Positions 1,445 through 30,174 of a DNA stretch of 64,000 bases are shown in pieces. The notes beneath the pieces are model-generated. The model ran no database searches, was not told the DNA's origin, and was given only the letters and a program-made list of their open reading frames with translations. The stretch covers positions 74,701 through 138,700 of the forward strand of contig CAYPWJ010000001.1 of NCBI GenBank assembly GCA_964414415.1, read 5' to 3'. This DNA is from an uncultured Thermoplasmatales archaeon (GTDB lineage Archaea > Thermoplasmatota > E2 > UBA202 > DSCA01). Numbering within the stretch: position 1 is the stretch's first letter; the number at the start of each line of letters is the position of its first letter. A program made the position numbers and the translations under genes.

Positions 1445-1491
1445 GCCTCCACATCGGCCTCTGAAATATTAATCTTATGCCACGGTGCAAG

Positions 1492-1604
1492 TGCAGGGGG
1501 AGGGATTTGAACCCCCGGACTCCTTCGAGACAGGATGTCTCCTCGAACCCTTCACTGCTTCGATCTTAAGTCCTGCGCCGTTGGCCATGCTTGGCTACCC
1601 CTGC
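1492..1604 (-). tRNA. tRNA-Leu (anticodon UAA), class II long variable arm, with a roughly 28-nt intron in the anticodon loop
   Basis: The reverse-complement folds as follows. Acceptor GCAGGGG/CCCCTGC. D arm. Anticodon stem CAGGA/TCCTG with loop CUUAAGA (U33, anticodon UAA). The intron follows the loop (ATCGAAGCAGTGAAGGGTTCGAGGAGAC). Long variable hairpin CTC-GAAG-GAG. T arm GGGGG-TTCAAAT-CCCTC. Discriminator A. TATA box 1625-1634 on the minus strand about 25 nt upstream. Confidence 0.65.
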
Positions 1605-4765: not shown

Positions 4766-4883
4766 TGCGGGCGCCGGGATTTGAACCCGGGTAATAGCCT
4801 GTTTGCGCCCCTTCCTTTGCGATGTAACGCTTTTAAAGGGTTACCTGGCAAGGCTATGTGATACCAATCTACACTACACCCGC
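4766..4883 (-). tRNA. Intron-containing tRNA. Best fold is tRNA-Gly(GCC) with a 44/45-nt intron. An alternative 1-nt-shifted fold gives Trp(CCA).
   Basis: Acceptor GCGGGTG/CGCCCGC (with G-U). T arm CCGGG-TTCAAAT-CCCGG. Discriminator A. Anticodon stem TAGCC/GGCTA with loop UUGCCAG gives U33, anticodon GCC and A37. Loop nucleotides UUGC can pair with intron GCAA, leaving a 3-nt bulge AC|A, which is consistent with a BHB splice motif. The CCA reading requires G33 and a 2-nt 26-spacer. Confidence 0.6.
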
Positions 4884-5003
4884 GGTGTGCAGCCTGTAAA
4901 TGGCATGTCCATCCAAATACTTTGCGGTTCAGGTGGATTCGCTGCCGGCGGCGGACGGCATACCACAACGTTTTTATAACGTCGCCGCTATTCATCGACC
5001 GCA

Positions 5004-5074
5004 GGGAATGGGGTTAAAAAAATGAAAACCATTTCATTTTTTGCCTCCCAACCTCCCCCCATTCCCGCTTTTTA
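5004..5074 (+). other. Nested inverted repeats (GGGAATGGGG...CCCCATTCCC with inner AATGAAA...TTTCATT) followed by a T5 tract. Possible small structured RNA or terminator.
   Basis: Seen directly in the sequence. Lies in a 320-bp AT-rich intergenic region between the tRNA at 4883 and the small gene at 5201. A TATA-like TTTTTATAAC sits about 35 nt upstream. Confidence 0.3.
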
Positions 5075-5457: not shown

Positions 5458-7497
5458 ATGGTCGAGCTACCGGCAGACGAAAAAAAACGCCTCCGCGCTC
5501 TCTCCAGGGATGAGGCAGCAAAAAAAATCGAGGAGCTCCGCGACGACATCCGCCACCACAACTACCTCTACTACGTCAAAAACGAGCCCGAGATATCCGA
5601 CGCGCAATACGATAAACTCGTCAAGAAGCTGGAGCTGCTTGAAGACGAATGGCCGGAGATGGTGACCGAGGACTCACCCACCCAGCGGGTCGGTGCTCCA
5701 CCTGTCGATGAGTTTCCAACAGTCGAGCACGTCAGGCCCATGCTCTCGCTCGACACCGCGGACGAGGAAGAAGTCCAGGCGTTTCACGAGCGCGTGCAAC
5801 GCGAGCTCGGCGTCGACGAGGTGGCATATGCACTTGAGCCCAAGCTCGACGGCCTCAGCATCGAGGTTATCTACCGCAACGGCTCCTACGAGCGTGGTGC
5901 CACCCGCGGCGACGGTGTCAACGGCGAGGACGTCAGCAACAACATCAAGACCATCCGGGCGGTGCCCCTCCGGCTGCACGGCGACGCCGACGACCTGCCC
6001 GATATGCTGGCCGTCCGCGGCGAGGTCATCATGCACATCGATGCTTTCGAGGCATACAACAAGGAACTGATCCAGGAGGGCGAGGAACCGATGGCGAATC
6101 CGCGCAACGCCGCCGCTGGCTCGCTGCGGCTGCTCGACCCCAGCAAGACAGCGGAGCGACCGCTGGATGTCTTTTTCTACGAGATCATGAACTACGAGGA
6201 CATCGACCTGGACACCCAGGCCGAGGCCCTTGAGCTGCTCGAGCGGCTGGGGCTCAAAACCAATCCGCTGGCTGAGGTGCATACGAGCGTTGAAGACCTC
6301 CACGCCTACCACGACGAGATGGAAGCGCGGCGGGAGGACCTCAGCTACGAGATAGACGGCGTGGTCATCAAGGTCAATCGCTTTGATTTCCAGGAGCAGA
6401 TGGGCACCAAGACCCGGAGCCCCCGGTGGGCCGTCGCCTACAAGTTCCCGCCGCGCCGCGAGGAGACCCAGATACGGGACATCACGGTCCAGGTCGGCCG
6501 GACGGGCATCCTGACGCCGCTGGCGCTGCTCAAGCCCGTCGACGTGCAGGGCGTAACGGTATCGAGGGCCAGCCTGCACAACCTGGACTATGTGAGAGAA
6601 AAGGACATCCGGATCGGCGACTGGGTGAAGGTCGTCCGAGCCGGCGACGTCATCCCTGAGGTGCTGGAGCCCATCGAGGAGGAGCGGAGCGGCGACGAAG
6701 AACGATTTGAGATGCCGCAGCAGTGCCCTGTGTGCGGCAGCACCGTCGTCAAGGATGGCGCCTACTACCGCTGCTCCGGCGGGCTGAGCTGTCCGGCGCA
6801 GCTCAAAAAAAGCATCGAGCACTTCGGCTCAAAGGGCGCGCTTGACATCGAGGGCCTCGGCGAGCAGACCGTCGCGCTGCTCGTCGACGAAGGCCTGGTC
6901 GAGCGGGTCAGCGATCTCTACCGCCTGGATGTCGACGACCTGACCGGGCTGCCGCGCTTTGCCGAGACCTCGGCTGCAAACCTCGTCCAGGCGATCCGGG
7001 GGAGCACGGAGCAGCCGCTCGACCGGGTCATCTACGCGCTGGGCATCCCGCACGTCGGGCGGCATATGGCCCACGTCCTGTCGGAGCAATTCGGCAGCAT
7101 GGATGCATTGATGCATGCCTCGCGGGAGGATCTCCGCGATGTCAGGGAGGTCGGGCCGGAGATAGCGCACAGCGTCGTCGACTTCTTCAGCGAGGAACGC
7201 AACCTGGAGGAGATCGAACGGCTGCGTGAGCACGGGGTCACGATGGAGTATGAGCCGGCGACCGGCGCCTTGGAGGGCCTGACGTTCGTGTTCACCGGCT
7301 CCCTGGACAATTATACCCGGGGCGAGGTGAAGGAGCTCGTGGGGCGGGAGGGCGGCCGTGCGGTGTCCAGCGTGAGCAACAGGGTTGACTACGTCGTCGT
7401 CGGCGCGGATCCCGGCTCGAAGCTTGACAGGGCGCGGGAGCTCGACGTCGAGGTCATCGACGAGGCGGCGTTTGAGGAGCTCCTGGGCGACACATAA
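5458..7497 (+). CDS. ligA: NAD+-dependent DNA ligase (bacterial LigA type; full domain set)
   Basis: 679 aa. N-terminal Ia domain (HNYLYYV...ISDAQYD), adenylation KxDG (EPKLDGLSIEV), OB fold, Cys4 zinc finger (CPVCGS...CSGGLSCPAQ), HhH repeats and a C-terminal BRCT domain. Confidence 0.9.
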   Translation: MVELPADEKKRLRALSRDEAAKKIEELRDDIRHHNYLYYVKNEPEISDAQYDKLVKKLELLEDEWPEMVTEDSPTQRVGAPPVDEFPTVEHVRPMLSLDTADEEEVQAFHERVQRELGVDEVAYALEPKLDGLSIEVIYRNGSYERGATRGDGVNGEDVSNNIKTIRAVPLRLHGDADDLPDMLAVRGEVIMHIDAFEAYNKELIQEGEEPMANPRNAAAGSLRLLDPSKTAERPLDVFFYEIMNYEDIDLDTQAEALELLERLGLKTNPLAEVHTSVEDLHAYHDEMEARREDLSYEIDGVVIKVNRFDFQEQMGTKTRSPRWAVAYKFPPRREETQIRDITVQVGRTGILTPLALLKPVDVQGVTVSRASLHNLDYVREKDIRIGDWVKVVRAGDVIPEVLEPIEEERSGDEERFEMPQQCPVCGSTVVKDGAYYRCSGGLSCPAQLKKSIEHFGSKGALDIEGLGEQTVALLVDEGLVERVSDLYRLDVDDLTGLPRFAETSAANLVQAIRGSTEQPLDRVIYALGIPHVGRHMAHVLSEQFGSMDALMHASREDLRDVREVGPEIAHSVVDFFSEERNLEEIERLREHGVTMEYEPATGALEGLTFVFTGSLDNYTRGEVKELVGREGGRAVSSVSNRVDYVVVGADPGSKLDRARELDVEVIDEAAFEELLGDT

Positions 7498-10425: not shown

Positions 10426-12120
10426 ATGAAAAACCGCGAGATGGCCGAGATCCTGTACGAGATCGCCGAGCTGCTCGAGATGAAGGACGTCGACTTCAAG
10501 CCCCGCGCCTACCGCCGGGCGGCGCAGAACATCGAGTCACTCGGCACAGACATCGAGGAGCTCCACGCTGACGGGACGCTGCAGGACATCCCCGGCGTCG
10601 GGAAGAGCATCGCCGAAAAAATCGAGGAATACCTGGAGACCGGCTCCGTGGAGACACTGGAGCGGCTGCGAGAGGAGACCCCGGTGGACATCCAGGAGCT
10701 CTCCGCGGTCGAGGGCCTGGGCCCCAAGCGCATCGAGACGCTGTACCAGAAGCTGGGCGTTACGACGCTCGACGACCTCGAGGAAGCCGCCAAGCAGCAA
10801 AAGATCAGGGAGCTGGAGGGATTCGGCGCGAAAACCGAGCGGAACATCCTCGAGGGCATCGCCTTCGCCCGGGAGAGCCACGACCGTTTCCTGCTCGGCT
10901 TCGCGCTCCCCGAGGCTGACGACATCGTCGAGCAGCTTGAGCCACACGTCAGCCGGATAGCCGTGGCGGGATCGCTCCGCCGCAGGCGGGAGACCATCGG
11001 AGACGTCGACATCCTCGCCGTGACGGACGGCGACGCGATGGAGGTCTTCACCGGCATGGAGCACGTGGACCGGGTCCTGGTCAAGGGAGAGACCAAGACC
11101 TCGGTGCGCCTGCAGGGCGGCCTGCAGGTGGACCTGCGCATCGTCGACGCGGAGAGCTTCGGCTCCGCATTGCAGTACTTCACGGGCAGCCGGGACCACA
11201 ACATCGCGGTGCGGAAGCGCGCCATCCGACGGGGCTACAAGCTCAACGAGTACGGTCTCTTTGACGGCGACAAACGAGTGGCCGGTGAAACCGAGGAGGA
11301 CGTCTACAGGGCGCTCGACCTGGCCTGGATCCCTCCGGAGCTGCGGGAAAACCGCGGAGAGGTGGCGGCGGCCGAGGAGGGGACGCTGCCTGACCTCGTC
11401 GACCTCGACGACGTGAAGGGAGACCTGCAGATGCATACCACGTGGAGCGACGGCGCGAACTCTATAGATGAAATGGTGGAGGCAGCCCTGGAGCTCGGCC
11501 ATGACTACATCGCGATCACCGATCACGTCGGCTCGCTGCGGATCGCCGGCGGCCTCAACGCCGACGAGGTGGCGGAGCAGGCAGACGAAATCCAGGCGGC
11601 CCGCGACACCTATGACGGCATCCATATCTTCCACGGCGTCGAGGCGAACGTCATGAAGGACGGCAGCCTCGATGTCGGCGACGATATCTTCGAGCGGGTC
11701 GACCTCGTGCTGGCCGGCCTCCATTCGGCGTTTCGGATGGACGAGGCGGCGATGACCGAGCGACTCGTTGCAGCTGTCGAGCATCCCGCGGTGGACATCA
11801 TCCCGCATCCGACCTGCCGGCGTCTCCAGAAACGGGAGCCCATCGAGGTTGACCTCGGCCGGGTGCTGCAGGCCGCCGCTGACAGCGACGTCGCCATGGA
11901 GATCAACGCCTACCCGGAGCGCCTGGACCTCAACGACGCTCACGCCCGGCGGGCGAGAGATCTCGGTGTCACGCTGTCCATAGGCACCGACGCTCACCGC
12001 GCGGATCATCTCCGCTACTACGAGCTCGGTATCGCGGTTGCACGGCGCGGCTGGCTTGAAGAAGACGACGTGCTCAACACGCTGGATGCATCGACGCTGG
12101 AGAAGCGCTTTGCACGCTAG
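10426..12120 (+). CDS. polX: Family X DNA polymerase (PolX) with a C-terminal PHP phosphoesterase domain
   Basis: HhH motifs (GVGKSIAEKIEEY, GLGPKRIETLYQ). Pol beta-like nucleotidyltransferase (GSLRRRRETIGDVDIL). PHP domain (HTTWSDGANSIDEM...ITDH...GVEAN). TATA TTTTTTAATTG about 30 nt upstream. Confidence 0.85.
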   Translation: MKNREMAEILYEIAELLEMKDVDFKPRAYRRAAQNIESLGTDIEELHADGTLQDIPGVGKSIAEKIEEYLETGSVETLERLREETPVDIQELSAVEGLGPKRIETLYQKLGVTTLDDLEEAAKQQKIRELEGFGAKTERNILEGIAFARESHDRFLLGFALPEADDIVEQLEPHVSRIAVAGSLRRRRETIGDVDILAVTDGDAMEVFTGMEHVDRVLVKGETKTSVRLQGGLQVDLRIVDAESFGSALQYFTGSRDHNIAVRKRAIRRGYKLNEYGLFDGDKRVAGETEEDVYRALDLAWIPPELRENRGEVAAAEEGTLPDLVDLDDVKGDLQMHTTWSDGANSIDEMVEAALELGHDYIAITDHVGSLRIAGGLNADEVAEQADEIQAARDTYDGIHIFHGVEANVMKDGSLDVGDDIFERVDLVLAGLHSAFRMDEAAMTERLVAAVEHPAVDIIPHPTCRRLQKREPIEVDLGRVLQAAADSDVAMEINAYPERLDLNDAHARRARDLGVTLSIGTDAHRADHLRYYELGIAVARRGWLEEDDVLNTLDASTLEKRFAR

Positions 12121-12228: not shown

Positions 12229-12353
12229 GCCCCGGTAGTGTAGTGGTTATCATGCGAGCCTGTCGAGGCCCCGCTGGGGCTGCAGCAAGCTCGCGACCCG
12301 AGTTCAAAGCCGTGTCGCGTCCTGCGGCATGGATGAAAATCTCGGCCGGGGCG
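12229..12353 (+). tRNA. tRNA-Asp (GUC) with two introns: a canonical 22-nt intron (12266-12287, between positions 37 and 38) and a 31-nt intron in the T-loop (12309-12339, between positions 59 and 60)
   Basis: Exons assemble into a 72-nt tRNA. Acceptor GCCCCGG/CCGGGGC. D arm GUGU-AGUGGUUA-UCAU, typical of archaeal tRNA-Asp. Anticodon stem CGAGC/GCUCG with loop CUGUCG|A. T arm CCGAG-UUCAAA|U-CUCGG. Discriminator G. Intron 1 forms a textbook hBHBh' motif: CUGU pairs with GCAG, the bulges are CG|A and CA|A, and the upper helix is GGCCCC/GGGGCU. Intron 2 has central helix UUCA/UGAA and 3' bulge AA|U, but a relaxed 5' side. Confidence 0.7.
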
Positions 12354-12435
12354 CTCCTTTCTTTTCCCCCGTGCCTGGTGCTTCCCGAAACTTACTTATA
12401 TGTAGCGAGGATAGTTCTCCCTGTCAGGTGACCGT

Positions 12436-14691
12436 ATGAAAGGAAAGCGGCATGTCATGCTTGTGTTTGGCCTCGTTTTTTTTATCGTTGCTCCCTCACT
12501 CGGGTTCGTGGTGACTCCGTCGATGAAGCGAGTGCCAGACGACCTGGACAAGACCATCCGCTATGAGGGTGACTTCGGTGTATTCAATACCTCGACGCTG
12601 CAGATGGATTACGTGGACGTGGAGATATGCCGGAACGTGACCGCGATTGAGGAACACGACGGTGTGCTGCTTCTCCGGGAGGATATATCAATTGTCAACA
12701 GCCGGACGGACGAGCAGATCCCGGAGCTGTCCGACACCAACATCTGGGCCATCGATCCCTACACCTCCAAAAACGTCAGGGGGTACGGTGACACGGAGCG
12801 CGTCGGCCAGTATATCTTCCCGATTGGCGTCGAGAAAAAACGGTATACCATCTGGAACGGCGACATGGACGGCCCCTACAGCGAGGGATACGTGGACGTT
12901 GAGGACGCGACGGGTGTCGCCCGCTACCAGGCCGAGGAGACGGTTGCCGGCACGACCTGCTACAAGTACCACGGCGGCCAGGAGGAAGTCTGGATCGGGC
13001 CGGGTCCGGAGGGCACCCCGCCGGGCACCGAGATGTATTACGAGGGCGAGCAGACCGCCTGGGTCGATCCCGAGACGGGCACCATCGTGGACTACGACAA
13101 ACACATCCGGCAGTACCTCGAGTTCCCCGACCTCAACCGGCTGCCGGCTGACCTGAACACGACAGCGCGGCTGAGCGGCACCATCGCCATGTTCAATCTC
13201 TCCAGCGCGGCATCCGACGATCCCTACGACCGGTGGAACGCTAGCGTCCGGCGGCACGTCTGGGTGGAGGAGGCATCCACCGACGAGATGTACATGGTCG
13301 GCAGCGAAACCATCGCACGAGACAGCGACGGCGATCTCCTCCCGGGTGACTTCCAGGCGTACAGCGTCGACGGCGTCAACCGGACCACGATGCACTATCA
13401 TCCACATTTCAGCGACAAGAGCGGCCGGCTGACGTTTCCCATCGGCGTCGAACAGCGCGACTACGAGCTGTGGAACAGCGACATCGGTGCCTCATCGACC
13501 GCCCGTTACACGGGGCAGACATCCATCGCCGGGCTGCCGGTCTACCGCTACCGGGTCTCGGTCGAGGAGCATCCACGCGGTACCATGTCGATCCCCGGGA
13601 TGAGCGACCGCCACGTCGACCTCTCATACAGCGGCGACACGGTCTACTACGTGGAGCCCGCCACCGGCAGCGTCGTCAACGTCGAAAAGACAGGCGTCGT
13701 CGAGGCGACGTTTCCCGACCTGCATACCATCCCAGAGAACACCCATACAGAGCTCGAGATGAACGGCGACCTCTGGATCCTCGGGCAGGGGCGCACCGAC
13801 ATCCGGATGCATCGGGAGGTCACGGCGACCGACACCCACTACGATGAAGGACGCAAGGTCATCCTGCTGCGCGACAACACGACGGTCTACGATCAGGCAA
13901 GCGGCGAGGTCGTCGAGATGGCGTCCGGCAGCGCGGTGCACGGCGTCTACGCAGAGACGGCCAGAGAGGCCCCGAACTACGGCGACCGCCACCGGGAGGG
14001 CGTCTTTACGTTTCCACCAGGCGTGGACAAGCAGACCTACCAGATGTGGAACACCGAGATCGCTGCGACGTCACCCGCCCGCTTCGTCCGTGAGGAAGAC
14101 CACGCCGGCATCCACACATATCTGTTCGAGACGGAGGAAAGCCGGCAGGTCTACGACCCCACAGAGGGCATCGAGCAGGAGGTCAAATATACGACGACGA
14201 CGCGGTACTGGGTGGAGCCCAACAGCGGCATGGTCATCGACATGGAAAAGACCTCGGAGAAAAAAGTCAATCTCCTCAACTACCTCGTCGGCATCCCGGG
14301 CCGGACCTGGGTGAAGGCCTACGAGCTCACGCTGTCGTTTTCCGACGGCACCGTCGCCAAAAACGTCCGGGCAGGACGGACGGCGGCAGCCCAGATGCAG
14401 CTCTCCGGCAGCACGATGCCGGTCACCACGGTGAATCTCTCAACCGCGGGGTTGATGGACAGCGTCAGGGCGGCACGGCAGCAAAAACAGCAGGTGCAGC
14501 AGCTCGACGAAAACAAGGTCAAAGCCGTGGATTTCCACTACTGGATGAGCCATGCGTCGGTGGAGCAGATGGCGGACGAAGCGCAGACAACCGGCTTCAT
14601 GCTCATGCTGCTCCAGGTCATCCTGCCCGTCCTCCTCGTGATTTTCGGTGTTGCCCTCGCTGTGCTCTGGTGGGTCAACCGGCCCGAGTAG
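12436..14691 (+). CDS. Membrane-anchored surface protein made of three tandem roughly 230-aa domains (DUF3068-like), with signal peptide and C-terminal TM helix
   Basis: Three copies of the block FPIGVEKKRYTIWN / FPIGVEQRDYELWN / FPPGVDKQTYQMWN, each followed by a Y..Y...E hallmark. N-terminal hydrophobic signal. C-terminal LMLLQVILPVLLVIFGVALAVLWWV anchor. Confidence 0.6.
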   Translation: MKGKRHVMLVFGLVFFIVAPSLGFVVTPSMKRVPDDLDKTIRYEGDFGVFNTSTLQMDYVDVEICRNVTAIEEHDGVLLLREDISIVNSRTDEQIPELSDTNIWAIDPYTSKNVRGYGDTERVGQYIFPIGVEKKRYTIWNGDMDGPYSEGYVDVEDATGVARYQAEETVAGTTCYKYHGGQEEVWIGPGPEGTPPGTEMYYEGEQTAWVDPETGTIVDYDKHIRQYLEFPDLNRLPADLNTTARLSGTIAMFNLSSAASDDPYDRWNASVRRHVWVEEASTDEMYMVGSETIARDSDGDLLPGDFQAYSVDGVNRTTMHYHPHFSDKSGRLTFPIGVEQRDYELWNSDIGASSTARYTGQTSIAGLPVYRYRVSVEEHPRGTMSIPGMSDRHVDLSYSGDTVYYVEPATGSVVNVEKTGVVEATFPDLHTIPENTHTELEMNGDLWILGQGRTDIRMHREVTATDTHYDEGRKVILLRDNTTVYDQASGEVVEMASGSAVHGVYAETAREAPNYGDRHREGVFTFPPGVDKQTYQMWNTEIAATSPARFVREEDHAGIHTYLFETEESRQVYDPTEGIEQEVKYTTTTRYWVEPNSGMVIDMEKTSEKKVNLLNYLVGIPGRTWVKAYELTLSFSDGTVAKNVRAGRTAAAQMQLSGSTMPVTTVNLSTAGLMDSVRAARQQKQQVQQLDENKVKAVDFHYWMSHASVEQMADEAQTTGFMLMLLQVILPVLLVIFGVALAVLWWVNRPE

Positions 14692-16540: not shown

Positions 16541-16592
16541 GGAGGTAAAGCATCCCTGGATATAAAAATCTTACAGATATGGAAATGGTCTC

Positions 16593-17654
16593 TCAGACAT
16601 GGGTCAGCAGCCAGTGGATGACGGGAAGCCGTTCGAAGATTTCCATATGTTTAGCCTTGGCGAGTTTGACGCGGAATCCTTTATACGACCATCCGCTTTC
16701 TAATCCGTCTTCATCCACTGCTTTAACCTTTATGCTTTTAGTTTCTCCTATGTCACCTATTTCGTCGTAGGTATGGGACAGCGTGACGGTGGCACCGCTT
16801 TCGAAAGGTCCATAGGTGGTGTTGGTCTCATTCTCCCAGTCCCATTGGACGATGAGGGTAATTTTATCATCATTTGGGTCATATACATGGGCCTGTAGCT
16901 TGTATTCCTTTCTCCATTTGACTGTGTCGTTTCCCTGTAGTATTGGTTCATAGGGCGGATAGTCCTTTTCTACTTCGTTTACTGGTCCAAAAAACATATT
17001 ATCAAACCGTAGTTCAACCTCTGGTGAAGGCAATTGATCCCTGCTGCTCTTCCAGCCTATTTCTAAATTAACATATCTGCTAGTCTCTTCGAAATAAAAA
17101 TTCCTATCGTTAGGGTCGCTACAATTAAACTCTACATACTTCCACTCATTATAAGGCGGAGTTATCTCTATAATTTTTGCATTCCCTCCATTCCATATAT
17201 CATTTTCTCTATACTCCGCGGCACATATAATAATCCGGGTGTCACTAGGGTTACCAGTAATTTTGTACCAGAAACCAACATGATAATACTTGTTGGGTTC
17301 TATCTTTATCTTTGAAGCGGTATTTGGCCACCAACCATTAAAAGCATGATTATCCAAATTGGTTATCCCTGCGGATTTACTACCCGAATGGGCATATTTA
17401 GAATCCCAAAGAGGCTTGGTTTCACCCATTCCATCAAAAAGCCATCTTGCAGGTTTATCATCAGAGCCAAATTCAAACGAAGGATTTTCAATGAGATTCG
17501 TGCCATTCAAGCTGCTCGGGGCGCATTTACTCTCCATCGATGCCCCGGTAAACGTTCCACCTGGCTTGTCTGCCGGCTGGATGGCTGCAATCGGCACAGC
17601 CAGCAGAGCGACTATCAGAAAGCAGATGACCACTCTGGAGGGTATCCATCTCAT
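16593..17654 (-). CDS. Secreted protein with a CBM/jelly-roll-like domain and a C-terminal PKD/Big-like domain, encoded in a low-GC islet
   Basis: Start at MRWIPSRVVICFLIVALLAVPIAA (M139 of the track ORF, signal peptide). By eye about 45% GC with A/T-ending codons, against about 65% in the flanks. Confidence 0.6.
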   Translation of the reverse strand: MRWIPSRVVICFLIVALLAVPIAAIQPADKPGGTFTGASMESKCAPSSLNGTNLIENPSFEFGSDDKPARWLFDGMGETKPLWDSKYAHSGSKSAGITNLDNHAFNGWWPNTASKIKIEPNKYYHVGFWYKITGNPSDTRIIICAAEYRENDIWNGGNAKIIEITPPYNEWKYVEFNCSDPNDRNFYFEETSRYVNLEIGWKSSRDQLPSPEVELRFDNMFFGPVNEVEKDYPPYEPILQGNDTVKWRKEYKLQAHVYDPNDDKITLIVQWDWENETNTTYGPFESGATVTLSHTYDEIGDIGETKSIKVKAVDEDGLESGWSYKGFRVKLAKAKHMEIFERLPVIHWLLTHV

Positions 17655-17806
17655 TTTATTTGCCTCTAAACCACAAAATGGTATATCGTTCATAAACCCA
17701 TCGAAAATGTAGCTTCCTTTTAAGATGTAATCTAAAGGCTTTCCGTATATCGTTCCTTCGGAAAGAGTACGCGAGGGTTTGCCAGAGACTCGCTCTATTC
17801 CCGGTT

Positions 17807-18223
17807 TCAGTATGAAGCCAGATACGGCTGCAGCGTCACGCGGAGCTCTTCTGGGTCGCGGAGCCCGGACATCGTGACCGCGGTGCCGTCGCCGTGGACG
17901 GTGACGTCCGTGTAGCCCAGCAGCGCTCCGGCGTAGCCCCGGCTGACCTCCAGGCCGGTGACGTCGGGGAGCGACAGGTCGCTGTGTTCCATGCGGAGGA
18001 GAAACGCGTAGTGTTCCTCCGCCCTGATGACCCGCTGGGTGGTGACGAGATACCGGACGCGTATCCATTTCACCGCGGCGTAGACGATGAAGAAAAGGCC
18101 CAGGCCGTAGAGCAGCAGCGTCGCACAGCCGAGCAGCCAGAAGAGCCAGAGCGACCGCAGCGATACCCGCCGCCAGAGGATGCGCTCGCCTGGGTGGAAA
18201 TGAAGACGGGTCTGCAGCGCCAT
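17807..18223 (-). CDS. Bacterial-PH-like (bPH_2/YdbT-type) membrane-flanked domain protein
   Basis: 138 aa. Two N-terminal TM helices then a PH-like domain. The start overlaps the upstream DUF63 stop in TGATG, indicating translational coupling. It is the C-terminal segment of the artefactually long track ORF 17807..19483. Confidence 0.6.
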   Translation of the reverse strand: MALQTRLHFHPGERILWRRVSLRSLWLFWLLGCATLLLYGLGLFFIVYAAVKWIRVRYLVTTQRVIRAEEHYAFLLRMEHSDLSLPDVTGLEVSRGYAGALLGYTDVTVHGDGTAVTMSGLRDPEELRVTLQPYLASY

Positions 18224-26295: not shown

Positions 26296-29200
26296 TCAAA
26301 ACCTGTCGAGGAAGGTGTCGATGACGGCGATGTCGTCCTCGCTTTCTATGTTGTAGAGGTCGAACACCGTCTGGTTGAGTTTGTCTTCCAGTTCTGCAAC
26401 TGTCGGCATGTCTCTGAGTTTCCCGATGTCTTGGTCGTGCATCTCTAAAATCTGCTGTACCAACTCATTGTTCACTGGCACTCGGATGATTATCTCTTCT
26501 TCCTTCGACAGTTTTTTCCCGTTGAGCGTCCGGGCAATGTATTCATATTTTTCGTCCGTGTTGATACGGTAGTCGTCGATGTAGTCGTCTTTTCCCAGCT
26601 TTATTTTCTTTCCTTCATCGAGGCCGGTCTGGATGGATATGGATGCCTCGCGGTAATAACGCTTTGTTGTATGCCGTATCTCGAAGAATTCGTCCACTAC
26701 ATCTTTTTTCCGTAGCGCTGAGAAGTACGGTGTGGGAAACATGTCGATTTTGCGTTTCAACTCCTCGATGCCGACTATCTGTTCTGCCACTTCTTTAATC
26801 TCTTCTAGGAAATCGAGTTCCCCATCTTTTTCTGCTGTTTTGATTGGCAGGAGCTTGATATAGGCGTCTGCGTAGGAATACGACTTCCCCGCATAGATGG
26901 TGCTTATGTGCTTTAGATAAAAGTCTAGCAAACTCGAATTCAACAGGCCAGTTAAGTAAAATGGAAATTGCTTCTCAGATTTTAGCAGAATCCCATAAAT
27001 TCCTCCGCCCTTTCCTCCGCCCTGAAACACATACTTTGCCTCATTGTCGTAGCAGTAATCACCTTCCTGAGAATTGAGTTGAACAAGTATTTTCTTTTTG
27101 TCATATTTGTCCTTGCTTCGGGGGTACCCCATCCCGTACCATTTATGCTCTTGGTTTTTCCCTCTCCTGAATTTGCCGCCCTCGCGGCTTCTCAAATCAT
27201 CTTCTATGCTCTCAAGATAACTCCACCCCTTCGGATACAAGTCCTCGATATAGGTGTCGCCGTAGTCAAACTTGCCCTCATATTCCTTGGATGGAATCAG
27301 CTTGTATTTCTCCTCGCCGTCGATTACATACTGTTGATAGGGGAAGAGCACATACCACCCCTTCCAGTCAATACGCCAGCGTTCGACATCCTTGCCGAAA
27401 AGAAAAGGCCGTACCAGCCCTTTCTCCACCTCAACGGGGTCGCCACCGCCCTTTGGCCGGGCGACAATAGTGTCTTCCCTCTCTTCTATCAGTTGTAGCA
27501 CATAGAAGTCATCTTTGCTAGTTGAAACCCCTTGAAATCCTCCGCTTTTAGTTTTGGTGAAATCCTGTAAAAGACTGCATCCCTCTTCTATCTGGCTGAA
27601 AACCTTCCATTCATTTGGGGGCATCAGGTACCAGCCCTGGGCGCGGAGGTTGTCGTACGGGAAATAAAACGCATCCGAGAAGTCGCCGACGACGTGGCTG
27701 TCCCCGTTTTCCAATTGTTCAAAGCAATGTTCGACATCTGCTAGCAGCTCTTCCCCATCATCACTGTCCCTGAATACACGTGCAACCGGAAAGCGGTGCT
27801 GCCGTCGTGGTCCCTTCGAAAACACGAAAATCGCCGGGTAATTCAAGGCGTCCTCGAACACGCGGCTGTCCTTCATGTCCAGCAGCTTGTCTATCTGCGC
27901 CTGCTCGGGCAGCCCGGCACGCATCGGCTTGCCATAGTTGGTGAGCAAAAACCGGTTCGAGACGATGTAGCTCAGTTTCCCCGCATGGCCGCCCTTTATC
28001 CACTTCAATCCTCGCTCGATAAACGGAACAAAGATGTCATAGTTACCCTTTGCCCAGTCATAGCAGCCCGACCATCTATTCTTCTGTTTCTCCGGTATAT
28101 CCTGAATCCGAACGTAGGGAGGATTACCAACCACGAAGTCGTAGTCAACAAAGTTTTTCAACAACGCTGCCAGCAGCACATCCTCAATCGACTTCACCAG
28201 CCGTCCGTCCTCAAAGTCACTTTTCAGAAGTTTTATCTTCTCCAACAGGTCATAGGCGTAGTCCTCGAAAAACTCGGCCAGCAGGCTCCATTTCTTGTCC
28301 ACGAGGTAATGACGCAGGTTTCTTTCAAGTCGGTCAAGGTTCACCGACTCTCGCTCCTCAACTGCGTCACGTTTCACAGTGTCAAATACCGCCTGCAGCG
28401 CACCGAAGTATTCCTCTGTCCGCTGGATATCTGTATGTTCACGGACGGTTATGATGTCAGGGATACGGAAGTCATCTTCGAAAAACGTTCCCTCGTCGCC
28501 CTGCACCGGCAGTTCGATGGACATGGTAAACGTCTTCCCGACGCCAAAGTCAGTTATCTTCATCCGCCCGCTCTGCTGTTCCATCGCTAGGGAATCCGTC
28601 CGAAAGATCGGCAGCCGCTTTAACACAAAGCCCGGGTCTTCTTCCTTCGCCTTCCGATAGGTTGGGAGCAACGCGAGCGTGAACTGCACCTGCGCCATGA
28701 TGGTGGCAAACGGGTGGATGTCAAAGCCGACGATGTGATACCGGTTGCATAGCTCGTCAAGCACCTTCCCCCATCCATGCTGTTCTGCCTTACGCTTTGC
28801 ACCGTCCAGATACCGTTTCAACGCCTCGACGAGAAACGTACCTGAGCCGCAGGCGGGATCCAGCAGCCGTCTGTCGACCGTCTGCTCGCCGGTGTAGCCG
28901 ACGGAATCCAAGATATAGTCAACTACTTCCATCGGTGTATAGAATTCACCGAGCGCCTTCCTCGTCTCAGTATCGAAATAACGCTGGTAGAGGATACCCA
29001 GCGGGTCGCCCTCGACGCGCGAGAAATCAAACTTGTAGATGGCGAGCAGCAGCTTCGCAACGTTTTTTCCAAATGTCGACATCTGCAGAGTGGTATCGCT
29101 AAAGAACTGCTGGTAGCTACGCCGGTCAAATTCCTCTGTCCACCAGTAAAAAATATCCTCCTCGAACACAGACGCAATGAGCTTCTCTTGCATATCTCTG

Positions 29201-30174
29201 ATGATCTGAGTAGCGATTTTCGGATAAGACGACTGAGCGATATCTACATCCGACCGAGAGGCGCGGCGCACCTCATTCTCAAGCAAATCAGAGAAATGAG
29301 CGTCAGGGAAACCGTAGTCCTCGCATGACTTCGTCAGGATAAGCCGCATAAAAAGAGCGAATGCTGTCTCCAGAGCAAACGTCATCAGGTATCTGTCCTC
29401 CTTTTTTCCGGGGGACAGCCCGGCTTTCTCAAAAACATGCGCCCAGTGATCCGGCACCTGGCTCTTTGTCAGCGACTTTGCATAGGAGCGCTTCCAGAAC
29501 TCGTAGGCGCTTTTGGTAAAACGCGAGGTTTCCCTGCTCTGCTCAAACAGATTTATGATCGAGGAGACAAGCTCGGAAAACAGAGAGTCCTCCTTGAGCC
29601 TGAAGCTTTCATAAAAATGCCCTCGAGATGTTTCTGTATCAAGCGATAGCCGTTCCTCGGCGGGCTTGAACTTGTCGATATACGTCAGCACATTGTCAAT
29701 TTTGGTCGTGCCGTAGTCAGGCTTCGAGAGCAGCCGTATGCCCTCACTTACCATCTCTTCGTCTATCTCCGACATGCCTCCGGAGATGTCGTTTCTCCGC
29801 AAAAGCCGCTTCTGCTGCCGTTCATAGAAAATAAGCTCCCGTCCATTGTAGAGAAGACCATAGTCTGCCTTTAGCTCATCGACATATTTTTCCTTCAGAT
29901 CATCTTCAAAATACCCGAGGTCGTCCACTCCTGGCTTTTTAAATTCGATGACAAAGACGATATCTCCAAACTCGTCGGTGCAATGGATATCGGTCCGCTT
30001 GCCTGTTGCGATGCGTTCCTCAAAGAAGATGTCGTTTTTCTCATATCCAAGATTTTCCAGGATTTCTTTTTTAGAAAATTTTATCCGAAGTGTTTCCTCG
30101 TTCATCTCCGGGTTATCCTCCACCTCCTGCCATAAATCACGTAACGCTTCAAATATGTCACCTACCTTTGACAT
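26296..30174 (-). CDS. Type IIG (Eco57I/MmeI-like) single-chain restriction-modification enzyme: N-terminal PD-(D/E)xK nuclease, gamma-class N6-adenine methyltransferase, C-terminal target-recognition domain
   Basis: 1292 aa. Nuclease motif D...FVIEFKK. MTase motif X GEFYTP, motif I LDPACGSGTFLV, motif IV VVGNPPYV. TRD with the LLNSSLLDFYL signature. By eye about 46% GC. Confidence 0.8.
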   Translation of the reverse strand: MSKVGDIFEALRDLWQEVEDNPEMNEETLRIKFSKKEILENLGYEKNDIFFEERIATGKRTDIHCTDEFGDIVFVIEFKKPGVDDLGYFEDDLKEKYVDELKADYGLLYNGRELIFYERQQKRLLRRNDISGGMSEIDEEMVSEGIRLLSKPDYGTTKIDNVLTYIDKFKPAEERLSLDTETSRGHFYESFRLKEDSLFSELVSSIINLFEQSRETSRFTKSAYEFWKRSYAKSLTKSQVPDHWAHVFEKAGLSPGKKEDRYLMTFALETAFALFMRLILTKSCEDYGFPDAHFSDLLENEVRRASRSDVDIAQSSYPKIATQIIRDMQEKLIASVFEEDIFYWWTEEFDRRSYQQFFSDTTLQMSTFGKNVAKLLLAIYKFDFSRVEGDPLGILYQRYFDTETRKALGEFYTPMEVVDYILDSVGYTGEQTVDRRLLDPACGSGTFLVEALKRYLDGAKRKAEQHGWGKVLDELCNRYHIVGFDIHPFATIMAQVQFTLALLPTYRKAKEEDPGFVLKRLPIFRTDSLAMEQQSGRMKITDFGVGKTFTMSIELPVQGDEGTFFEDDFRIPDIITVREHTDIQRTEEYFGALQAVFDTVKRDAVEERESVNLDRLERNLRHYLVDKKWSLLAEFFEDYAYDLLEKIKLLKSDFEDGRLVKSIEDVLLAALLKNFVDYDFVVGNPPYVRIQDIPEKQKNRWSGCYDWAKGNYDIFVPFIERGLKWIKGGHAGKLSYIVSNRFLLTNYGKPMRAGLPEQAQIDKLLDMKDSRVFEDALNYPAIFVFSKGPRRQHRFPVARVFRDSDDGEELLADVEHCFEQLENGDSHVVGDFSDAFYFPYDNLRAQGWYLMPPNEWKVFSQIEEGCSLLQDFTKTKSGGFQGVSTSKDDFYVLQLIEEREDTIVARPKGGGDPVEVEKGLVRPFLFGKDVERWRIDWKGWYVLFPYQQYVIDGEEKYKLIPSKEYEGKFDYGDTYIEDLYPKGWSYLESIEDDLRSREGGKFRRGKNQEHKWYGMGYPRSKDKYDKKKILVQLNSQEGDYCYDNEAKYVFQGGGKGGGIYGILLKSEKQFPFYLTGLLNSSLLDFYLKHISTIYAGKSYSYADAYIKLLPIKTAEKDGELDFLEEIKEVAEQIVGIEELKRKIDMFPTPYFSALRKKDVVDEFFEIRHTTKRYYREASISIQTGLDEGKKIKLGKDDYIDDYRINTDEKYEYIARTLNGKKLSKEEEIIIRVPVNNELVQQILEMHDQDIGKLRDMPTVAELEDKLNQTVFDLYNIESEDDIAVIDTFLDRF

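Follow-up and report, generated by a model that had tools for sequence, protein, structure and literature searches.

An interrupted tRNA-Asp gene between PolX and PorA-like genes

The stretch of archaeal DNA analyzed here, a 64-kb window, carries a tRNA-Asp(GUC) gene at 12229-12353 on the forward strand. The gene is intergenic, with a PolX gene (10426-12120) on one side and a PorA-like gene (12457-14691) on the other, and both its sequence and ARAGORN on the spliced form divide it into three exons and two introns (Table 1), in the order exon 1 (GCCCCGGTAGTGTAGTGGTTATCATGCGAGCCTGTCG), intron 1 (aggccccgctggggctgcagca), exon 2 (AGCTCGCGACCCGAGTTCAAA), intron 2 (gccgtgtcgcgtcctgcggcatggatgaaaa) and exon 3 (TCTCGGCCGGGGCG). 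Exon 1 holds the 5' strand of the acceptor stem, the D arm (with G10.U25 and G18G19), the 5' strand of the anticodon stem, and loop nucleotides C32 U33 G34 U35 C36 G37. Exon 2 continues with A38, the 3' strand of the anticodon stem, a 4-nt variable loop, the 5' strand of the T stem (12298-12302) and T-loop nucleotides U54-A59 (12303-12308). Exon 3 supplies U60, the 3' strands of the T and acceptor stems, and the discriminator G73; CCA is not encoded.

When the exons are joined, ARAGORN reads the resulting 72 nt as tRNA-Asp(gtc) with all stems paired, the predicted 3' half being ...GAGUUCAAAUCUCGGCCGGGGCG. The spliced sequence has every element that we looked for in a tRNA-Asp(GUC) cloverleaf, namely a 7-bp acceptor stem, a D arm with G18G19, a 7-nt anticodon loop with U33 and GUC, a 5-bp T stem and a T-loop of the form TTCRANN (here TTCAAAT), along with the discriminator G73. 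This clean call bears out the two-intron tRNA-Asp, with the same intron bounds and 72-nt product, that had been put forward in an initial annotation of the sequence. Once intron 2 is taken out, ARAGORN itself names an intron at 37/38. By sequence alone, the junctions of intron 1 could slide by up to 2 nt and those of intron 2 by up to 3 nt along an A run, always with the same product; we assign positions 37/38 and 59/60 because they are fixed by the geometry of the bulge-helix-bulge (BHB) motif rather than by the sequence.

Table 1. tRNA genes detected in the window, with the parts and putative flanking signals of the tRNA-Asp gene
Feature	Position	Strand	Description	Basis
tRNA-Leu(TAA)	1491-1604	-	28-nt intron at 37/38	Rfam, ARAGORN with intron option
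tRNA-Gly(GCC)	4766-4883	-	45-nt intron 4801-4845, strict BHB	Rfam, ARAGORN with intron option, removal scan
Putative BRE/TATA promoter element AAAATATTATTAA	12194-12206	+	~29 nt upstream of tRNA position 1	Sequence
tRNA-Asp exon 1	12229-12265	+	37 nt; tRNA positions 1-37	ARAGORN cloverleaf of spliced sequence
tRNA-Asp intron 1	12266-12287	+	22 nt; position 37/38	ARAGORN and BHB scan
tRNA-Asp exon 2	12288-12308	+	21 nt; positions 38-59	ARAGORN cloverleaf and relatives
tRNA-Asp intron 2	12309-12339	+	31 nt; T-loop position 59/60	Minimum-energy fold and BHB scan
tRNA-Asp exon 3	12340-12353	+	14 nt	Sequence, ARAGORN, relatives
T-rich tract TTTCTTTT	12358-12365	+		Sequence

Structure of the two introns and their effect on gene detection

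In the BHB geometry that we used, an outer helix is followed by a 3-nt bulge, a 4-bp central helix, a second 3-nt bulge and an inner helix, and the precursor is cut after the second nucleotide of each bulge. Intron 1 has all of these elements. Its central helix pairs C32-U35 (12260-12263) with GCAG (12282-12285), giving CUGU/GCAG with one U.G pair; C36 G37|A and C A|A38 form the bulges, six base pairs (GGCCCC/GGGGCU) make up the inner helix, and the 5-bp anticodon stem serves as the outer helix. The BHB scan labels it 'strict', with the 4-bp center, two 3-nt bulges and flanking helices of at least 2 bp of the hBHBh' motif, in agreement with the textbook motif described in the initial annotation. 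The 3' end of the intron, GCAGCA, also permits a second pairing register, which the minimum-energy fold favors; in relatives with GCAGAA or ACAGAA, the BHB register is the sole one possible. All relatives retain GCAG or ACAG, while the intron is otherwise variable and its length ranges between 22 and 47 nt. In one of them (L003) the inner helix gains a compensated A-U pair, and in another (L012) the GCAG of the central helix has become ACAG. Intron 1 is thus an ordinary strict BHB intron, matching in its 4-bp center, two 3-nt bulges and flanking helices the canonical archaeal 37/38 intron as defined by Marck & Grosjean 2003 (quoted in PMC6379350), with no notable difference.

Intron 2 has a different structure. 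Its outer helix is the 5-bp T stem, and its central helix, formed by U54 U55 C56 A57 (12303-12306) and UGAA (12334-12337), is a perfect UUCA/UGAA; the 3' bulge, A A|U60 (12338-12340), is also perfect. At the 5' site, A58 A59|G (12307-12309) lies opposite one unpaired A (12333), which makes a 3x1 internal loop and no clean bulge. Beyond this loop, 12310-12318 pairs with 12324-12332 in a 9-bp inner hairpin. An unconstrained minimum-energy fold reproduces this structure exactly at both 37 and 60 C, and the BHB scan labels it 'off1', meaning that the inner helix is displaced by one nucleotide. Intron 2 therefore falls outside the strict hBHBh' motif, since its 5' bulge is not clean and its inner helix is one nucleotide out of register; the outer helix, 3' bulge and 4-bp center are intact and the cleavage sites symmetric, as in a relaxed hBH-type motif at 59/60, hBH being the name of this class in the published nomenclature (PMC3239211, PMC6379350). 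Folds and scan label alike uphold the good central helix, good 3' bulge and relaxed 5' side first noted from the sequence. Removal of the intron restores the T-loop consensus TTCAAAT.

We considered other identities for the inserts and rejected them. Intron 2 is not a C/D-box guide RNA, as its GGAUGA is no C box and 31 nt is too short. A self-splicing group I or group II intron has a ribozyme core of hundreds of nucleotides that matches Rfam intron models; the two inserts measure 22 and 31 nt, and no Rfam intron model matches the region. Comparison of introns 1 and 2 with each other revealed no evident sequence similarity, and hence no hint of a transposed intron.

Standard finders miss the gene, as the initial annotation had anticipated. 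Without its intron option, ARAGORN makes no tRNA call across the 64-kb window; with the option, it calls tRNA-Leu and tRNA-Gly and misses tRNA-Asp, and these same two genes are the only ones in the window that Rfam matches at its gathering score. On the unspliced tRNA-Asp gene, the Rfam tRNA model (RF00005) reaches 16.8 bits, against a gathering score of 29, in a truncated alignment with the wrong fold. We also carried out a removal scan, in which each BHB-like candidate (4-bp center, flanks of at least 2 bp, intron of 10-70 nt) was excised before ARAGORN was run. The ~7000 candidates in the window led to two genes, those for tRNA-Asp and tRNA-Gly; a few alternative calls fell within the known genes. 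The same scan on one reversed and three shuffled windows, with ~6200-6900 candidates each, gave no tRNA call. Gene recovery therefore exceeds chance. In practical terms, standard annotation would leave the source genome and its relatives seemingly without a tRNA-Asp, with consequences for estimates of their completeness and for what is inferred about their codon usage.

Source lineage and conservation among relatives

GCA_905333555.1 (contig CAJOUV010000012.1) and the assembly of run ERR5414699 both encode proteins identical to ones in the window. The named relatives of its threonyl-tRNA synthetase (ThrRS), from 85% down to 53% identity, are all Thermoplasmatota, Thermoplasmata or Thermoplasmatales metagenome-assembled genomes. 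Judged by these protein matches, the source is an uncultured member of the Thermoplasmatota and not a crenarchaeon.

Related tRNA-Asp loci came from a scan of one genome per species (L003, L004 and L005, each from an uncultured Thermoplasmatales archaeon), from a metagenome scan for the T arm with its insert (five further loci, L008-L012) and from following ThrRS synteny (L013/L014, from GCA_034660695.1). The exons hardly vary among the eleven related loci, which represent eight distinct related versions of the gene. A homologous T-loop intron of 30-32 nt, with varying loops and compensatory stem changes, is present in seven distinct versions; this intron is found in L003, L005 and L008-L013, and L003 and L005 have the same two-intron tRNA-Asp gene as the window. 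The exons of L004 are 100% identical to those of the window. Its intron at 37/38, of 45 nt, is a different one, and the T-loop intron is absent, so that the T arm reads CCGAGTTCAAATCTCGG. With the Rfam tRNA model, the L004 gene reaches 51.5 bits (E 3e-10), above the gathering score of 29. Given the identical exons, this score indicates that the exons of the window are probably bona fide tRNA by covariance model, and the intron-less T arm of L004 means that the predicted junction of exons 2 and 3 exists in nature.

Some of the substitutions in the exons and introns are compensatory. Exon 1 is identical in L003, L004, L005 and L010, and each remaining relative has 1-5 substitutions in it, some of them compensated changes in stems; in the anticodon stem of L012, C27:G43 is replaced by U:A and A29:U41 by G:C. 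In the inner helix of intron 2, per-sequence folds show pair 2 as C:G or G:C, pair 9:17 as G:C or U:A, and pair 10:16 as C:G, A:U, G:C or U:A. A MAFFT alignment of six versions of the T arm with intron 2 has 97.8% of its cells paired, compared with 25-46% in slid controls. Formal covariation on that alignment is weak, with one pair showing a double change and 74 of 500 shuffles reaching the observed score. We used per-sequence folds for covariation because indels misalign the inner helix in the alignment, and the stronger compensatory signal accordingly belongs to those folds and not to a single alignment. Apart from an unpaired A57.C in L012, nothing varies in the central helix of intron 2, which therefore gives no covariation evidence. 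Both motifs appear in unconstrained folds of the window and of five of the six relatives that have intron 2; in the minimum-energy folds of L012 and L013, the central helix did not form unaided.

The irregular 5' site has been retained along with the rest of the motif. All seven versions of intron 2 have a one-nucleotide excess on the 3' strand opposite the 5' splice site, with different facing nucleotides (G/A in the window, A/G in L008, U/U in L012). In L013 this extra nucleotide is shifted inward by one position, and in L008 and L009 a formally strict register is possible with a 2-bp inner helix. As far as sequences and predicted folds can tell, the 3x1 asymmetry at this splice site is kept across the clade.

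The loci that share the T-loop intron are considerably diverged. L003, L005, L010 and L011 are syntenic with the window at ~80% nucleotide identity, and L008 and L009 at ~70%. L013 keeps the PorA-like/ThrRS neighborhood at 58-68% protein identity and has 43% G+C, and L012 has 38% G+C. Overall, versions with the T-loop intron span 38-63% G+C and ThrRS identities down to 68%, and the intron is therefore old within the clade. A more distant locus, L015 (ThrRS 61-62% identical), has no tRNA-Asp beside its PorA-like gene and is for that reason uninformative on the intron.

The flanks of the gene also carry conserved elements. An A/T box corresponding to the putative promoter element is kept at an equal distance from the gene in L003, L004, L005, L008-L011 and L013, despite diverging flanks, and L012 has a diverged A/T-rich box at this site; from its sequence and position, we infer that the box is a promoter. 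T runs directly follow the gene in all relatives, and the T tract of the window is likely a transcription stop. Further downstream, the element CCCGAAAC(A/T)TACTTATA, at 12384-12401 on the forward strand, is kept in the window, L003, L005 and L008-L013 even where the flanks have diverged (the L008 and L009 extracts end within it); it is probably part of the promoter region of the PorA-like gene. The gene that follows tRNA-Asp is not always the same. In L005, the match to the PorA-like protein of the window, at 24-629, has just 28% identity, compared with 77-78% in L003, L010 and L011, and by this measure the neighbor gene differs in an otherwise close relative.

Proposed splicing, the endonuclease question and known parallels

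Taken together, the sequence evidence indicates that the tRNA-Asp(GUC) gene at 12229-12353, from an uncultured Thermoplasmatota archaeon, is very probably functional, with two protein-spliced introns of BHB type. In archaeal tRNA splicing, EndA cleaves bulge sites and an RtcB-type ligase joins the exons. From the observed anatomy of the gene, its propensity to fold, its conservation and the presence or absence of the introns among relatives, we infer the course that transcription, cleavage and ligation, and the enzymes involved, would take. Transcription, directed by the upstream A/T box and ending at the T tract, would yield a precursor in which a bulge-helix-bulge extends both the anticodon arm and the T arm. 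EndA would then cut after the second bulge nucleotide at 12265|12266, 12287|12288, 12308|12309 and 12339|12340, and an RtcB-type ligase would link the exons. The ends would be trimmed last, and CCA would be added at this late stage because the gene does not encode it. The T-loop intron is predicted to use the T stem as its outer helix and to lock U54-A57 in the central helix; with these nucleotides sequestered, the T-loop/D-loop elbow could form only after the intron has been removed.

Which type of EndA would carry out these cuts bears on how the T-loop intron is interpreted. The alpha4 enzymes, and the alpha'2 enzymes characterized to date (those of A. fulgidus and T. acidophilum), have narrow specificity, and (alpha-beta)2, epsilon2 or loop-bearing enzymes cut relaxed motifs efficiently (PMC5829648, PMC6379350). 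The initial annotation had held that the non-canonical position of an intron demands a broad-specificity endonuclease; this needs rewording, as the reviews tie the demand to a relaxed motif (PMC5829648, PMC6379350), which in our case is the 3x1 loop. A narrow alpha'2 EndA, if that is the enzyme here, might not cut the relaxed 5' site efficiently. A tblastn search with five EndA sequences, none of them from Thermoplasmatota (the M. jannaschii query was checked against 1A79), gave no EndA match either in the window or among the loci retrieved. An EndA profile search of a large protein collection returned Methanopyrus, Sulfolobales, Methanococcales and similar sequences, none tied to the source lineage.

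One possibility is that both introns of a functional gene are removed by an ordinary alpha'2 EndA of narrow specificity that tolerates the 3x1 loop, in which case no special enzyme would be implied. We regard this as a serious possibility that falls somewhat short of probable. Intron 2 is canonical in its central helix, its 3' bulge and the two helices that flank them, with a single extra nucleotide deviating, and the formally strict register available to L008 and L009 points the same way. The A. fulgidus alpha'2 EndA cuts a bulge-helix-loop at 37/38 in a full-length precursor, and the characterized Thermoplasma enzyme is of the alpha'2 type (PMC6379350). On the other hand, a relaxed D-loop intron was not visibly removed in vitro by the A. 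fulgidus alpha'2 EndA (PMC5829648), and reviews associate relaxed or multiple introns with loop-bearing, (alpha-beta)2 or epsilon2 enzymes. The other tRNA genes of the window also speak against an ordinary enzyme. All three tRNA genes detected there contain introns, and two of the four introns are relaxed on the 5' side, as the tRNA-Leu intron has a 3-bp central helix and an A35.G mismatch by the 5' bulge; this fits an intron-rich lineage. If a fraction f of the tRNA genes is split, the chance of finding three of three split is f cubed, and f is therefore probably above ~0.37, as estimated from three genes in one window. The three split genes fit an intron-rich lineage with a tolerant enzyme, without proving one.

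It is tempting to speculate further that this clade, with its range of 38-63% G+C, became rich in tRNA introns and has long kept a T-loop intron with a fixed 3x1 loop, and that its EndA broadened in specificity independently of the known routes. We consider this about as probable as the ordinary enzyme, and less likely than not. Possible routes under such a scenario would be a new insertion in an alpha'2 enzyme or the acquisition of an epsilon2 or (alpha-beta)2 enzyme. If true, independent broadening of EndA would extend the proposed co-evolution of tRNA and EndA to a new phylum, one whose sole biochemically characterized endonuclease is listed as narrow-specificity. The EndA of the clade is predicted to tolerate a 3x1 internal loop at a splice site, and a conserved natural substrate exists for it.

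That the locus is instead a decaying pseudogene, with the 31-nt T-loop insertion left in place and another gene supplying tRNA-Asp, is very improbable. Rejection by standard finders and the imperfect 5' side of the BHB would suit a decaying gene. However, the exons are invariant or compensated in eight distinct versions while both introns diverge freely, the promoter box and the T tract are conserved, the insertion retains the exact geometry for cleavage at symmetric sites, and the locus persists in lineages with ThrRS identity down to 68% and with 38-63% G+C. A different fold without a T-loop intron is scarcely credible, since of its two candidates the 72-nt tRNA-Asp that ARAGORN calls with intron 1 alone removed has mismatches in the acceptor and T stems, the 53-nt partial Rfam match at 12229-12281 lies, with its 16.8 bits, far under the gathering score of 29 and has an E value of 0.61 and no T arm, and both leave unexplained the exon 2-exon 3 junction that L004 presents just as removal of intron 2 predicts.

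For a functional tRNA-Asp gene with two BHB-type introns, the closest described case is the pre-tRNA-Cys(GCA) of ARMAN-2 (Ca. Micrarchaeum acidiphilum), which has a 59/60 intron of the relaxed hBH type (Fujishima et al. 2011, PMC3239211). Both introns occupy the T-loop site 59/60 in a relaxed motif, intact at the bulge on the outer-helix side and disrupted on the other, and both archaea are non-TACK. In contrast to the ARMAN-2 case, the window gene encodes another tRNA in another phylum and also carries a canonical intron; moreover, the EndA of ARMAN-2 is a three-unit epsilon2 enzyme for which cleavage of relaxed motifs has been demonstrated. In general kind, our gene belongs with the tRNA genes with several introns known from Thermoproteales and other Crenarchaeota (Sugahara et al. 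2008, reviewed in PMC4033280). These also pair a BHB-type intron at 37/38 with a second one at a non-canonical site, and they too are unseen by standard finders until the introns are removed, but the crenarchaeal enzyme is an (alpha-beta)2 EndA with a Crenarchaea-specific loop and the window genome is that of a member of the Thermoplasmatota. The pre-tRNA-Glu(UUC) of Methanopyrus kandleri, with a canonical intron and a relaxed HBh' intron in the D-loop (Kaneta et al. 2018, PMC5829648), offers a euryarchaeal-grade parallel of a two-intron tRNA whose second intron is relaxed and lies outside the anticodon loop. It differs in that its second intron is in the D-loop and of HBh' type, and in that its EndA, an (alpha-beta)2 enzyme that lacks a specific loop, is inefficient at cutting the relaxed intron.

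BHB introns at 59/60 are already well described as a phenomenon, and two-intron and T-loop-intron tRNAs are a kind well known in other archaea and, as far as we found, not described in this Thermoplasmatota lineage. A 2014 review lists multiple-intron tRNAs in Crenarchaeota, Nanoarchaeum, M. kandleri, M. thermautotrophicus, Korarchaeum and ARMAN-1/2, and Thermoplasmata are absent from its list (PMC4033280). We found no published report of non-canonical tRNA introns in Thermoplasmatota in a literature coverage that is incomplete. The phyletic range of multiple-intron and T-loop-intron tRNA genes now reaches the Thermoplasmatota. Such introns would mislead as the phylogenetic marker for which they had initially been recommended, as the source is a member of the Thermoplasmatota, outside the lineages classically known for them.

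Several other features of the window deserve mention. A ~75-nt element of nested hairpins lies near a tRNA gene both in the window (5000-5072, read on the reverse strand) and in L004 (2686-2760, forward strand), and is 83% identical between these otherwise unalignable sequences; its outer stem is GGGAATGGGG/CCCCATTCCC, its interior holds GGGAGGC and an A-run/T-run hairpin, and no Rfam model matches it. A bacterial-type NAD-dependent DNA ligase (5458-7497, forward strand; DNA_ligase_aden, OB, ZBD, HHH_2 and BRCT domains) is encoded in this archaeal genome near the PolX-PHP polymerase gene. About 1.2 kb of the window (16582-17819) is missing from the syntenic L003, L010 and L011; an open reading frame that overlaps this segment (16593-18068, reverse strand) has at most a borderline CBM_4_9 match. 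Finally, a 1292-aa protein with N6_Mtase, Eco57I and TaqI_C domains (26296-30174, reverse strand) looks like a fused restriction-modification enzyme. Its gene lies in a G+C dip at ~24-36 kb (0.54-0.57, against 0.58-0.65 elsewhere), a stretch that may be an acquired island.
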